Numbered from the stretch's first letter, positions 2,087 through 44,013 are shown. The stretch is DNA of 44,017 nucleotides from Candidatus Wildermuthbacteria bacterium RIFCSPHIGHO2_02_FULL_45_25 (GCA_001823215.1 MHTV01000045.1:1-44017); one strand, 5' to 3'. Program-made: numbers and translations. Notes: a model not told the origin generated them from the letters alone.

Positions 2087-2242
2087 TTTGAATTACGAAA
2101 AGAGCAAAACATAATGCTTTGAGAACACGGATATTTTTCTGCTGAAAAATTCCTGGCTCTCCCACCTCGCGGTGAGGGGCTCGCGCCAGTCGCGCTCCCA
2201 ATGTTCTCAAAACCTCATAATGTGCTAGTTTCGTAATTCAAA
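2087..2242 (-). repeat. Nested-hairpin intergenic element, copy A (family core reads on the minus strand here)
   Basis: Perfect outer arms TTTGAATTACGAAA / TTTCGTAATTCAAA (2087-2100 / 2229-2242). Inner arms TTTGAGAACA / TGTTCTCAAA (2118-2127 / 2202-2211). The core matches copies at 11105-11223, 12788-12951 and 42694-42812. Strand is given for the orientation in which the core reads GAGCGCGACTGGCGCGAGC; the functional strand is unresolved. Confidence 0.85.
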
Positions 2243-11104: not shown

Positions 11105-11223
11105 AAATAATAGTTTTAGAATATACTTTTGAGAACCTTGCGAGCTTGACTGAAGCGAGCACGAGGAATTTTTCAGCAGAAAAATATCCGTGTTCTCAAA
11201 AGTATATTCTAAAACTATTATTT
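11105..11223 (+). repeat. Nested-hairpin intergenic element, copy B
   Basis: Perfect 32-bp arms (11105-11136 / 11192-11223) enclose GAGCTTGACTGAAGCGAGC-ACG-AGGAATTTTTCAGCAGAAAAATATCC. Confidence 0.9.
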
Positions 11224-11857: not shown

Positions 11858-12785
11858 ATACCAATATCTGTATCTTTTGCAGGATATTTTAGATAACGGC
11901 GCCATTAAGCATGAATTTAATACGGGCATTGAATTCCGCAGTGTGTTTGGCAGACAAATTCGTTTTGATTTATCGCAGGGCTTTCCCCTGCTTACCACCA
12001 AGAAAGTTTTTTGGCGCGGCATTACTCACGAACTGTTATGGTTTTTGAAGGGAGATTCCAATATTAAGTACCTTGTGGATAACGATGTGCATATTTGGGA
12101 TGATTGGGCGTATCGCATCTACAAAGAACAACTAGAAAAACTTGGGGCAAATGTGATGTCTCAACAAGATTTTATCGCCAAGCTGAAAGAAAATGACGCG
12201 TTTGCCGCAAAATGGGGCGATATTCTGACTGTGTACGGCCGGATGTGGCGCAAGTGGCCGGCTTCCGATGGACGTGAAATTGATCAAATCGCGTGGGTCA
12301 TTGAAAAGTTAAAGAAAAATCCCGATCGCCGCCATTATGTCGTTTCCGCATGGAATCCGGACTTTATCTATGAGATGGCATCTGCTGGAAACGCGCGTCC
12401 TGTTCCTCCGTTCTGCCACACGATGTTTCAGTTTAACGTCATCAATGGCAAGCTTTCTCTGCAACTCTACCAAAGATCGGCCGATATGTTTTTGGGCGTG
12501 CCGTTTAATATCGCAAGCTACGCATTATTGCTTATGATGCTTGCGCAAGTTACGGGTTATCCGCCGGGAGATTTTGTGCACACATTTGGGGACGCGCATA
12601 TTTACGGAAATCATTACGAACAAGTCCATGAACAACTCAAGCGCGATCCGCGGCCGTTTCCCACGATGGTAATAAATCCTGAACGTAAACATATTGATGA
12701 CTTTACATTTGAAGACTTCAAACTCGAAGGATACGATCCCCATCCCCTTTTGAAAGGCGAAGTAACCGTGGTAGGCGGGTTTTAG
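11832..12785 (+). CDS. thyA: Thymidylate synthase (long, L. casei-type with about a 50-aa insert)
   Basis: [10 protein letters not shown] (catalytic Cys) and [21 protein letters not shown] (the Asn that specifies dUMP). It overlaps the dcd end by 26 nt. Confidence 0.9.
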
Positions 12786-12787
12786 AA

Positions 12788-12951
12788 TGTTTGCTATGAG
12801 ATTTTCTTTGAATTACGAAACCAGTAGGATATGAGTTTTGAGAACGTTGGGAGCGCGACTGGCGCGAGCCCCTCACCGCAAGGTGATAGGGGGAGCATCA
12901 GGAATGTTTCAGCAGAAACATATCCGTGCTTCTAAAATCTCATAGCAAACA
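12788..12951 (+). repeat. Nested-hairpin intergenic element, copy C (rearranged, with an extra orphan arm)
   Basis: Outer arms TGTTTGCTATGAGATTTT / AAAATCTCATAGCAAACA. The core is identical to A and D in hairpin 1. Positions 12807-12846 are about 85% identical to the arm of copy A but have no partner on the 3' side. Confidence 0.85.
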
Positions 12952-19600: not shown

Positions 19601-19674
19601 CGCGGGCGACCGGACTCGAACCGGCGACCTTCTGCGTGACAGGCAGACGCTCTAACCGACTGAGCTACGCCCGC
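19601..19674 (-). tRNA. tRNA-Asp (GTC)
   Basis: Hand-folded cloverleaf: GCGGGCG/TA/GCTC-AGTCGGTTA-GAGC/G/TCTGC-CTGTCAC-GCAGA/AGGTC/GCCGG-TTCGAGT-CCGGT/CGCCCGC/G. CCA is not encoded. Confidence 0.9.
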
Positions 19675-19716
19675 AATATCTTTTACCTTTGAACGATGAA
19701 ACTCCTTCTCATAGAG

Positions 19717-19788
19717 TGGCTGCGGCAGGATTTGAACCTGCGACCTCGGCCTTATGAAAGCCTCGCTCTGCCACTGAGCTACGCAGCC
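19717..19788 (-). tRNA. tRNA with CAT anticodon (elongator Met or Ile2-lysidine type)
   Basis: GGCTGCG/TA/GCTC-AGTGGCA-GAGC/G/AGGCT-TTCATAA-GGCCG/AGGTC/GCAGG-TTCAAAT-CCTGC/CGCAGCC/A. CCA is not encoded. Confidence 0.85.
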
Positions 19789-19848
19789 CTGCCGCTTGAG
19801 GGCAGACAGGCCGCCTGCCATCGGTTGTGCCTGATTCTTTCTTTTTTG

Positions 19849-19919
19849 TAGCGGGGCCAGGAGTTGAACCTGGATTTAGAGGTTATGGGCCTCCCGTGGT
19901 ACCGAACCACTTCCCCGCT
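19849..19919 (-). tRNA. Atypical tRNA with CAT anticodon (possible initiator-like)
   Basis: AGCGGGG/AA/GTGG-TTCGGTA-CCAC/G/GGAGG-CCCATAA-CCTCT/AAAT/CCAGG-TTCAACT-CCTGG/CCCCGCT/A. The acceptor resembles tRNA-fMet CGCGGGG but has an A1:U72 pair. It carries A8 and C33 instead of the usual U8 and U33. Confidence 0.7.
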
Positions 19920-32590: not shown

Positions 32591-32693
32591 ACATTCATGC
32601 TACAATTCATCGTGAATAAATTTGGATTGCGAAACTCCGTGGAGGGCATACCTTTTGTCCGTCCGCTAACCGGCGGACGAATTGTTCTCCTCA

Positions 32694-42693: not shown

Positions 42694-42812
42694 GAGTTGG
42701 TTTTTTGCCATAAGGTACGGAGAGACTTGTGAGCGCGACTGGCGCGAGCACGAGGAATTTTCTAGTAAGAAAATATCCGTGCTCTCCATACCTTATGGCA
42801 AAAAACCAACTC
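42694..42812 (+). repeat. Nested-hairpin intergenic element, copy D
   Basis: 31-bp arms (42694-42724 / 42782-42812; 30 of 31 positions paired) enclose GAGCGCGACTGGCGCGAGC-ACG-AGGAATTTTCTAGTAAGAAAATATCC. Confidence 0.9.
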
Positions 42813-42861: not shown

Positions 42862-44013
42862 TCAAGAGATTACCCCTGCTCCTATCATTTCATTGTTGTC
42901 ATACAGCGCCGCAAACTGCCCTTTCGTTACCGCTCGTTGAGGATCCATAAAATTCAATACGTGCTTCTCCCCTGCTCTTTCTTCCAAAACCGCCTCTGCC
43001 ATAGGGCTTCGATAGCGCAGTTTCACATGGAGGTTCGCGGGAAACTTCTTTGGCTTGGCAAACCAATTGATATGAGAAATTTTCACACGGGATTTCAGTA
43101 AATCATTTTCATCCTTGCTTACCTCCACGATATTTCTTTTCACATCTTTGTCCACCACAAAATATGGGCCACCGGCCAACCCAAGCCCTTTGCGCTGACC
43201 AATCGTATAGTACACGGCCCCTTCATGCTCACCCAATACATTTCCCTCCATATCATGAATTTCCCCTTTCTTTGGCGGAATATAGTGCTTGAGGAAGTCC
43301 GAGAAATCCACTTTCCCCACAAAGCAAATTCCCTGGCTGTCTTTTCGCTCCGCATTGGGAAGTCCAAATTTCTTTGCTAACTCTCTGACTTGAGGCTTGG
43401 TATATTCCCCTATGGGAAACATCACGTTCAACAACACCGCAGGATCAATCATGGAAAGAAAATACGACTGATCTTTATTTTCATCTCTCGCCGCCAGTAT
43501 GTGAACAGTTTCTTTTTGTTGCTTCCGACTCTTTGGAACTCGAGAACTGGAAATGGGAAATTTTCGAGAAAGTCGAGCATAATGTCCGGTTGCAACAAAA
43601 TCCGCGCCCAACCGCATTGCTTTCTCAAAAAACAGCCCGAACTTGATATGCTTGTTGCACATTACATCCGGATTTGGCGTAATCCCCTTTCTGTATCCTT
43701 CGAGCATATAATTTACCACTCGTTCTTTGTATTCTTTAATGAAGTTCAAAGAATAAAACGGAATGCCAATTTTGTGCGCTGCAAGCCGCGCCATTCGTTC
43801 GTCGTCTGAAGATGTGCAGTTCTCCCCCATTGGATCATCCGCGCTCCAGCACTTCATGAAAATTCCAATCACGTCAAAACCGGCCTTCTTGAGCAAGGCC
43901 GCAGACACCGAGCTGTCCACTCCGCCAGACATTGCCACGAAGACCTTTCTTTTAAGAGGGGTATTTGATTGTTTGTGTTTATTCCAAATTCTGGCCATAT
44001 TCGTTTCGTTCAC
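42862..44013 (-). CDS. mnmA: tRNA-specific 2-thiouridylase
   Basis: PP-loop VAMSGGVDSS and conserved Cys (CNKHIKF, GICF). The ORF-track start at 44013 is GTG; the first ATG is at 43998. Confidence 0.9.
   Translation of the reverse strand: MNETNMARIWNKHKQSNTPLKRKVFVAMSGGVDSSVSAALLKKAGFDVIGIFMKCWSADDPMGENCTSSDDERMARLAAHKIGIPFYSLNFIKEYKERVVNYMLEGYRKGITPNPDVMCNKHIKFGLFFEKAMRLGADFVATGHYARLSRKFPISSSRVPKSRKQQKETVHILAARDENKDQSYFLSMIDPAVLLNVMFPIGEYTKPQVRELAKKFGLPNAERKDSQGICFVGKVDFSDFLKHYIPPKKGEIHDMEGNVLGEHEGAVYYTIGQRKGLGLAGGPYFVVDKDVKRNIVEVSKDENDLLKSRVKISHINWFAKPKKFPANLHVKLRYRSPMAEAVLEERAGEKHVLNFMDPQRAVTKGQFAALYDNNEMIGAGVIS

Follow-up and report, generated by a model that had tools for sequence, protein, structure and literature searches.

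The contig MHTV01000045.1 of Candidatus Wildermuthbacteria bacterium RIFCSPHIGHO2_02_FULL_45_25 (GCA_001823215.1), analysed here over its 44,017 nucleotides (nt) and hereafter called the window, carries four copies (A to D) of a nested hairpin element whose family is undescribed in all the databases and literature that we searched. [quoted passage not shown] These elements are inserted, interspersed and structurally constrained, with a head that is conserved and strand-specific and a stem that is local and plastic. With a confidence a little above even, we read them as a selfish inserted element found throughout the Candidate Phyla Radiation (CPR, or Patescibacteria), whose head would be recognised in single-stranded form and whose stem would be kept paired by templated conversion.

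The element measures about 120-165 bp and one of its strands folds into a T-shaped hairpin. Its head, of about 56 nt, is formed by two small hairpins (H1 and H2) set on a three-way junction, where a GUG junction leads into the long copy-specific stem. H1 is composed of C-(U)-UGC, a tandem GA, GCGC and a GACUG loop, and H2 is A/U-rich (GGAAUUUUUC), carries a single bulged A and has AGCA or AGUA as its loop. In a gapless alignment of 87 distinct copies, in which the three-way junction was specified and P1 denotes the closing helix, 93.9% of the head cells are paired versus 74.5% in shuffles, 21 of the 29 pairs are altered on both sides, and the double-change cells number 494 versus 133 in shuffles, a count reached by none of 500 shuffles. 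Pairing in H1 and H2 amounts to 97.7-99.7% with several pair types, while all slid controls drop to 35-57%. The positions fixed by the search pattern are uninformative in this respect; those that covary (12/38, 14/36, 21/29, 22/28, 44-49/54-59 and all of P1) were free. The preliminary description of the window, made from its four copies, had proposed selection on a folded structure rather than a simple decaying MITE, and the covariation bears out the former. The contrast with MITEs fails because copies lie in frame within genes, decay by deletion and occur in multiple copies in many genomes: the elements are inserted, interspersed and MITE/RPE-like.

The stems also tell which strand folds. The strand as written has 122 transition mismatches that create G·U (G·T) pairs, its complement 36 (95 distinct copies, p=4e-12), and tandem 5'-GA-3'/5'-GA-3' mismatches number 28 and 0, respectively (p=7e-9). 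The strand evidence, which appeared conflicting when only the window was considered, is thereby resolved in favour of the strand as written: copy A folds on the minus strand, and copies B, C and D fold on the plus strand. Where the flanking genes are co-directional, the folded strand is antisense to them in 29 cases and sense in 14 (p=0.03). We infer that the head is recognised in a single-stranded form, and favour single-stranded DNA (ssDNA) over RNA because the mRNA strand is seldom the one that folds and no promoter is conserved.

A pattern scan of 185,579 species-representative genomes yielded at least 95 loci in about 55 genomes, from which 101 copies were extracted; the counts of loci given below refer to those listed. 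Among these matches, the taxon-named records belong mostly to CPR lineages (Taylorbacteria, Nomurabacteria, Giovannonibacteria, Vogelbacteria, Zambryskibacteria, Paceibacterota and metagenome-assembled genomes (MAGs) labelled 'Saccharibacteria'), many records are labelled just 'uncultured bacterium' or 'bacterium', one MAG with four loci is labelled Gammaproteobacteria, and many genomes hold multiple copies. A covariance model built from 87 copies, that is copies B and D plus 85 from other genomes, gave 115 matches over 682 kb of fetched loci, about 20 of them outside the search pattern; the lower-scoring additional copies have divergent heads and the same architecture. Consistent with the preliminary description, which could assign the element to no Rfam family, a scan of the whole window at gathering thresholds returned three tRNA matches only, and, under permissive settings, Rfam 15 matched the regions of copies B and C by chance only, below threshold (the best being TwoAYGGAY at 28 bits for a threshold of 43). 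Neither the head pattern nor, as exact matches, the arms of copies B and D were found in 2.9 million viral contigs; plasmid and phage collections queried by BLAST with copy B gave no match, and no publication retrieved by our literature searches describes palindromic repeats or MITEs from CPR bacteria. A profile of the head peptide run against 5.8 billion proteins matched six tiny spurious open reading frames (ORFs) only and missed the known in-gene cases, so that it is uninformative on frequency. Six public 'proteins' of 48-69 amino acids (aa), P0001-P0006, are translations of intergenic copies of the element.

The stems, for their part, bear few of the marks of transposons. Among 33 copies whose stems end sharply, TSDs do not exceed chance, the lengths of direct repeats matching those of shuffled partners, and no flanking dinucleotide is conserved; the few flanking direct repeats of at least 4 nt include the structural GAGCGAG motif. 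When the inner 12 nt are excluded, 75 of 95 stems are similar to no other stem and the remaining 20 fall into six small clusters, three of them restricted to a single genome. Near-identical whole elements occur at different loci in CAZFHL, CAZAOU and CAZVCF. Copy A and part of copy C belong to the one sub-family that possesses TIR-like TTGAATTACGAAA termini together with a conserved asymmetric internal loop, and the same TTGAATTACGAAA termini flank quite different cores at loci L061 and L064. There, TTGAATTACGAAAT / ATTTCGTAATTCAA termini bound structured cores (GTCATTGCGAG...CTCGCAATGAC) that are unlike the head studied here (L061, 1382-1525 and ~2820-2944; L064, 5383-5518), and to judge from these sequences such termini would behave like TIRs common to several element families.

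In-frame copies within housekeeping genes

Seventeen of the listed cores lie within long ORFs, and 9 of these 17 interrupt, as judged by translation, a recognisable housekeeping gene. The genes with in-frame copies are those of RecG, DnaE, Tgt, MnmA (at two sites), Dus, Fmt and IscS, to which adds an eighth ORF without identification (L034); in RecG the copy is located between helicase motifs II and III. The other eight ORF-internal cores comprise three probable ORF-calling artefacts at gene starts and five outside the examined set. A single reading frame is used per orientation, encoding ..LASATGASTRNFxAxKYPC.. when the head is in sense and ..TDIFLLKNSSCSRQSRSQ.. when it is in antisense. Because these reading frames are intact, the in-gene copies are presumably translated.

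Alignment to solved homologues gave net insertion lengths of +39 aa for IscS, +37 aa for RecG and +35 aa for Tgt, which correspond to both arms plus the head, and of +30 aa for MnmA and +28 aa for Fmt, which are less than both arms plus the head. Either native sequence was lost in MnmA and Fmt, or their stems were partly made from flanking DNA. The short MnmA insert and the native-like residues encoded by the arm had prompted the idea that one arm is, as a general rule, native target sequence; against such a rule stand IscS, RecG and Tgt, with their gain of two arms and a head, and the sub-families in which unrelated loci have arms in common, and we rejected it. It may still hold for the outermost portion of some stems.

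The MnmA loop that extends from TGHYA to KDQSYF counts 18-20 aa in most of 120 homologues; 8 of the 120 carry the head peptide at this place, and other homologues carry unrelated inserts of 25-35 aa, the loop being therefore a hot spot for several insert families. Two such families, without recognisable head peptide, are represented by P0132, P0143, P0166, P0184, P0157 and P0179 and by P0134, P0139, P0142, P0149 and P0205, one having the sequence ..KIGQANGLA..EEIRGPESELFS.. and the other ..KKAQTQVLG..TRPDHSPDQFS..; several distinct in-frame insert families thus seem to exist in CPR genomes. The MnmA protein of the window itself (mnmA, 42862-44013) has a loop of 33 aa at 43477-43575 (minus strand) versus the usual 18-20 aa, which may be the remnant of an older insert, devoid of a recognisable head.

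We also considered whether the element splits genes. Ten same-strand ORF pairs that closely flank an element turned out to be different and complete genes (for example AlaRS/Tgt, LigA/GatC, UvrD/KsgA, MraY/FtsW and GyrA/methyltransferase), and among these ten pairs there is no evidence of stop-containing intragenic copies or of splicing.

Genome-specific heads, inverted heads and rewritten arms

Heads differ by 3.9 of 56 nt within a genome and by 7.1 of 56 between genomes (permutation p<0.0005), and this likeness within genomes persists for 40 same-genome pairs with unrelated stems. At the orthologous mnmA site of four species, whose MnmA proteins are 70-86% identical, the 48-nt head core is identical at 48 of 48 positions, and the arms have diverged yet remain paired, with their wobbles on the strand of the head. 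One mnmA site reveals that the head can be inverted: it is in sense in CAYVWL (L020) and in antisense, at the same codon position, in CAYUVX, and the arm-encoded peptides are conserved between the two genomes despite the opposite heads. The head of CAYVWL is also inverted relative to that of P0128 and others, and the proteins P0127 and P0128 are 86% identical with opposite head orientations. The mnmA copy of CAYUVX was reassembled from the ends of two contigs, which share 55 nt within the head; the end of L019 and the start of L012 both fall within it, so that in this MAG the repeat breaks the short-read assembly and splits mnmA across contigs. Copies also decay, as exemplified by P0234, which is 87% identical to and syntenic with P0241 and has undergone an in-frame deletion of 81 nt that leaves one arm and 8 nt of the head.

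The population to which the window belongs, from the Rifle aquifer, offers a view of arm evolution on a shorter scale. Eleven assemblies are identical across copies B and C, and the ~240-270 nt that could be aligned around these copies between the window and locus L106 are 100% identical. Copy A exists as two alleles: in eight assemblies its 40-nt arms are perfectly complementary (40/40), while the window and two others (L003 and L004) carry a 17-nt patch at 2101-2117, in one arm only, the alleles being otherwise identical. Contig MHTP01000004.1 of GCA_001823135.1 (L006), from the same population, differs from the window at copy A. No source sequence for the 17-nt patch is present within the window. 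In Escherichia coli, quasipalindrome template switching perfects an imperfect inverted repeat in a single multi-base event (PMC7202029). Its outcome matches the two alleles of copy A, on the understanding that it is a mutational process and not an element family. Since one arm of copy A can be rewritten in a single 17-nt patch, the perfection of long arms need not reflect selection alone. Likewise, L061 holds a 'perfected' version of arms whose counterparts at L055 and L096, in the same genome, bear an internal loop.

The patch also affects the region upstream of murG: the window allele displays a sigma-70-like site directed toward this gene (TTGAAT-16 nt-CATAAT, 9/12, 2088-2115, plus strand), whose CATAAT -10 falls in the patch; the perfect-arm allele has TATGAG and fails the scan criteria. 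No result bears out the extended -10 that the preliminary description had suggested for murG.

A scenario for the favoured element may be drawn from these observations. What is propagated or homogenised in a genome would be the head, whose single-stranded form would be recognised by a putative trans-acting factor. The whole hairpin, both arms and head, would arrive at new sites without TSD or conserved termini, as is seen for IscS, RecG and Tgt. After insertion, the stem would be kept paired, perfected and sometimes extended by templated conversion within the element, a process that the polymorphism of copy A illustrates once and that we suppose to be general; arms would consequently drift between copies yet stay complementary within a copy. 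The head would be able to invert between its arms, as it did at one mnmA site. Copies would persist only where they are harmless, either between the genes of housekeeping operons, where spacers are short, or in frame within what would be surface loops of the proteins, their position inside genes being observed and their translation presumed, and would be lost by deletion, as in P0234.

Relation to known elements and competing explanations

A close parallel is found in the RPEs, in-frame palindromic repeats of housekeeping genes that encode a conserved peptide and are apparently tolerated (PMC10969869). Both are palindromes of ~100-150 bp in reduced genomes with many in-frame copies in unrelated housekeeping genes, and the hallmark of RPEs, an in-frame palindromic insert encoding a conserved peptide, is found here in RecG, DnaE, Tgt, MnmA, Dus, Fmt and IscS. 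The comparison is one of descriptions rather than of sequences, between Rickettsia on one side and Patescibacteria on the other. Unlike RPEs, the present elements conserve only the apical head, on a stem that is different in most copies; this head can be read both ways and is inverted at one site, and a strand-specific structural constraint is demonstrated.

REP sequences and REPINs, mobilised by RAYT, a Y1 enzyme of the HUH class, are interspersed hairpins without TSDs, mostly extragenic, that show compensatory changes and whose recognition presumably involves DNA in a folded, single-stranded state. REPINs have conserved REP arms with a GTAG end and a variable loop, and are not known to lie in frame within genes. 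Hairpin, interspersion and absence of TSD are thus shared, but the layout of the present family is the opposite, with a conserved apex and variable arms. Classical MITEs (Correia, ERIC, RUP, Nezha), derived from DDE transposases, are likewise short, non-coding, multi-copy and intergenic and can form in-frame gene fusions; they are set apart by their TSDs and conserved TIRs, conservation being central in our family and only one sub-family having TTGAATTACGAAA ends. The PATE elements derived from IS200/IS605, which insert 3' of a conserved tetra- or pentanucleotide and bear sub-terminal hairpins at both ends, share the absence of TSD and TIR, but the elements studied here have no conserved flanking dinucleotide and form one nested hairpin instead of two end hairpins. 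A bulged base, that of H2, is the sole trait in common with integron attC sites, in which conservation resides in the R and L boxes at the base of the stem rather than at the apex, the centre is variable and the position is at cassette boundaries beside intI; our copies are found in housekeeping operons and genes. Nor do they look like intrinsic terminators, with 0 predicted sites around copy A and no T-runs in the flanks of copies B and D.

The inverted terminal repeats (ITRs) of parvoviruses such as adeno-associated virus are T-shaped, exist as flip and flop isomers, contain GAGC motifs and are recognised by an HUH nuclease acting on folded ssDNA; they are the telomeres of a linear Rep-encoding replicon. 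The resemblance extends to the long stem with two small hairpins at a three-way junction, the GAGC motifs and the two orientations observed at the mnmA site, but the copies described here are internal to chromosomal contigs, were found in none of the viral contigs searched, came with no identified Rep and provide a single observed flip. By analogy, this resemblance might serve as a lead to an HUH-type partner, and not as a classification.

Several observations weigh against a selfish element whose stem is kept by templated conversion. No mobilising enzyme or autonomous partner turned up among the loci, which were not screened for transposases. Neither the metagenome scan nor the MurG relatives examined yielded an empty site at nucleotide resolution: the single metagenome match for an empty site of copy B was an unrelated AT-rich contig, retained by chance, the nearest of the MurG relatives (L106) comes from the same population and carries copies A, B and C, and the next one (64% identity) has another gene order. 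No presence/absence polymorphism exists among the 11 near-identical assemblies of the Rifle population. The inserts of MnmA and Fmt are too short for both arms and the head, and the choice of ssDNA over RNA rests solely on orientation statistics. Finally, identical orthologous heads and strand-specific wobbles in copy-specific arms resemble purifying selection in situ; a purely selfish element predicts such conservation only if heads gene-convert and only well-folded copies persist.

The latter point is accommodated by a function for the host, in which each copy is selected for what its folded strand does for the cell in the form of ssDNA or antisense RNA, be it as a binding site for chromosome or replication proteins, as a priming or processing signal or as a small antisense RNA, insertion into genes being incidental. 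Besides the invariant head core at orthologous mnmA sites, such a function would account for the strand-specific G·U pairs and tandem G·A mismatches in arms unique to one copy, which follow the inverted head, for a high density in genomes of ~1 Mb (4 copies in 44 kb), and for extra hairpins tolerated at several positions, as in functional RNAs. We nonetheless consider it unlikely, since the copies have no conserved promoter or terminator, no Rfam match and a mixed orientation relative to genes, since those within coding sequences add 28-39 residues to proteins, since deletion occurs without obvious cost, and since genome-specific heads fit repeats that spread or convert. A function exerted at the level of the mRNA, where the hairpin would tune operon expression in cis as an RNase III site, stabiliser, attenuator or terminator, is highly improbable. 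Many copies do fill the spacers of housekeeping operons (ftsW/murG, mraY/ftsW, ligA/gatC), long perfect duplexes would be substrates of RNase III, and the window allele of copy A creates the sigma-70-like site 5' of murG; but antisense placement of the folded strand is about twice as frequent as sense placement, copies also sit in divergent promoter regions and inside coding sequences, the terminator scan around copy A found 0 sites and no T-run, and either orientation occurs at the same mnmA site.

It is also conceivable, though quite doubtful, that the repeats are ancient and immobile, being inherited vertically while gene conversion homogenises the heads and template switching keeps the diverged stems paired. 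The greater similarity of heads within than between genomes despite unrelated stems, the mnmA insertion site common to several species with homologous arms, and the lack of presence/absence polymorphism in the Rifle assemblies would all be expected. The near-identical whole elements at different loci of CAZFHL, CAZAOU and CAZVCF, however, indicate recent copying of arms together with head, the MnmA proteins that bear the element are not mutual nearest relatives, and the one MnmA loop hosts several insert families unrelated to one another. A rather unlikely possibility takes mobility further and sees in the head the substrate of an unrecognised mobilisation system acting on folded single-stranded nucleic acid, which would transfer or duplicate the head and build or rebuild a new stem at each site; rolling-hairpin or HUH-like and reverse-transcription-based modes are candidates. 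If it held, mobilisation by stem rebuilding without TIRs or TSDs would be a mode of transposition undescribed in bacteria, and one that also remodels the housekeeping proteins of CPR. Last, the arms, ~30 nt long and unique, might be taken for spacer-like memory acquired on a constant protein-binding head, as in guide-bearing hairpins. We give this idea almost no credit: the viral contigs contain no exact counterpart of the B and D arms, several sub-families inherit arms and head together, arms diverge slowly at orthologous sites, and the copies are single, scattered and inside genes.

CPR genomes are among the smallest and most streamlined of bacteria, and still the family attains its density in the window and sits inside essential genes (dnaE, recG, iscS, tgt and mnmA). 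It extends the phenomenon of RPEs, selfish DNA within protein-coding genes, from Rickettsia to a major bacterial branch, and constitutes a natural experiment on the tolerance of proteins to inserts of 30-40 residues readable in either orientation. The combination of a conserved apex with a free stem, a strand-specific fold, the inversion of the head and the rewriting of an arm in one step points to recognition of a folded single strand and to active maintenance of the palindrome, and makes the search for a partner enzyme well defined. In practice, the element breaks assemblies, inflates predicted protein lengths and populates protein databases with spurious small ORFs.

The copies of the window

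The four homologous hairpins of the preliminary description were all confirmed where it had placed them. On the window, the covariance model recovers exactly four true copies, at 98.5 bits (B), 90.7 (D), 43.3 (A) and 36.8 (C); a further match at 26-83 (26 bits) is a false positive inside the murD coding sequence. With up to 3 mismatches, the H1 core motif GAGCGCGACTGGCGCGAGC and the H2 motif each have 3 matches in the window versus 0 in 100 shuffles, copy B being the GCTT/AAGC variant of H1. A MAFFT alignment of reverse-complemented copy A with B, C and D shows a common core and arms that are unrelated except for TTTGAATTACGAAAC in A and C. Every copy folds as a single long nested hairpin of -56 to -71 kcal/mol. 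Alignment and folds agree with the pair exchanges reported previously: GCGC/GCGC replaced by GCTT/AAGC in H1 of copy B, T:A replaced by G:C in H2 of copy C and a swap of two pairs in that of copy D around a constant bulged A, the closing helix GAGAAC/GTTCTC shortened to GAGAG/CTCTC in copy D, the extra hairpins of A and C with their GCGA and GCAA loops, and arms paired over 32/32 positions in B and 30/31 in D.

Copy A (2087-2242, minus strand) is a long form with a four-way head, of predicted stability -70.9 kcal/mol on the minus strand and -59.5 on the plus strand. It comprises, on the folded strand, the 5' arm (2242-2203), H1 (2202-2178), the extra GCGA-loop hairpin (2179-2159), H2 (2153-2129) and the 3' arm (2126-2087). 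Its spacer lies between ftsW (stop codon at 2080-2082) and murG (ATG at 2266). The copy indeed starts directly 3' of the ftsW stop, the interval being 4 nt rather than the 5 nt claimed, as it begins at the fifth base. Copy B (11105-11223, plus strand) is a short form located in the divergent spacer between a folA-like (DHFR) gene and dcd; its 5' arm (11105-11136) is followed by H1 (11137-11163, with the TGC/GCA extension and the tandem G·A), H2 (11165-11189) and the 3' arm (11192-11223).

Copy C (12789-12950, plus strand) is a rearranged long form between the convergent genes thyA (stop at 12785) and rplK, and not a simple hairpin: its 3' arm (12929-12950) pairs with the outer 17-nt segment of the 5' arm (12789-12805), and a 40-nt segment of A-type arm (12806-12845) is interposed on the 5' side. 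H1 (12846-12870), the extra GCAA-loop hairpin (12871-12893) and H2 (12901-12925) complete it. Copy D (42694-42812, plus strand), a short form, comprises the 5' arm (42694-42724), H1 (42726-42752), H2 (42754-42778) and the 3' arm (42782-42812); it is inserted between mnmA and alaS, both on the minus strand, and is hence antisense to both. The extra hairpin of copies A and C stands at the H1/H2 junction. Elsewhere in the family, extra hairpins were noticed in the H2 loop (L051, 3013-3112), in the H1 loop (L016, 7659-7748) and 5' of H1 (L076, 7110-7185).

A segment at 32616-32655 (plus strand) is probably a headless relic of a long-form 5' arm (TAAATTTGGATTGCGAAACTCCGTGGAGGGCATACCTTTT), that is, a decayed fifth copy. 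Local alignment finds its best counterpart in the 5' arm of copy L063 (score 42, 33 of 40 columns identical) and also relates it to the terminus of copy A; the covariance model gives no match there. The segment sits in the divergent spacer of two genes without Pfam match. Apart from the element, the window holds three tRNA matches at 19601-19916 (minus strand), the third of which (19853-19916, 34 bits, model positions 4-67) looks truncated or aberrant.

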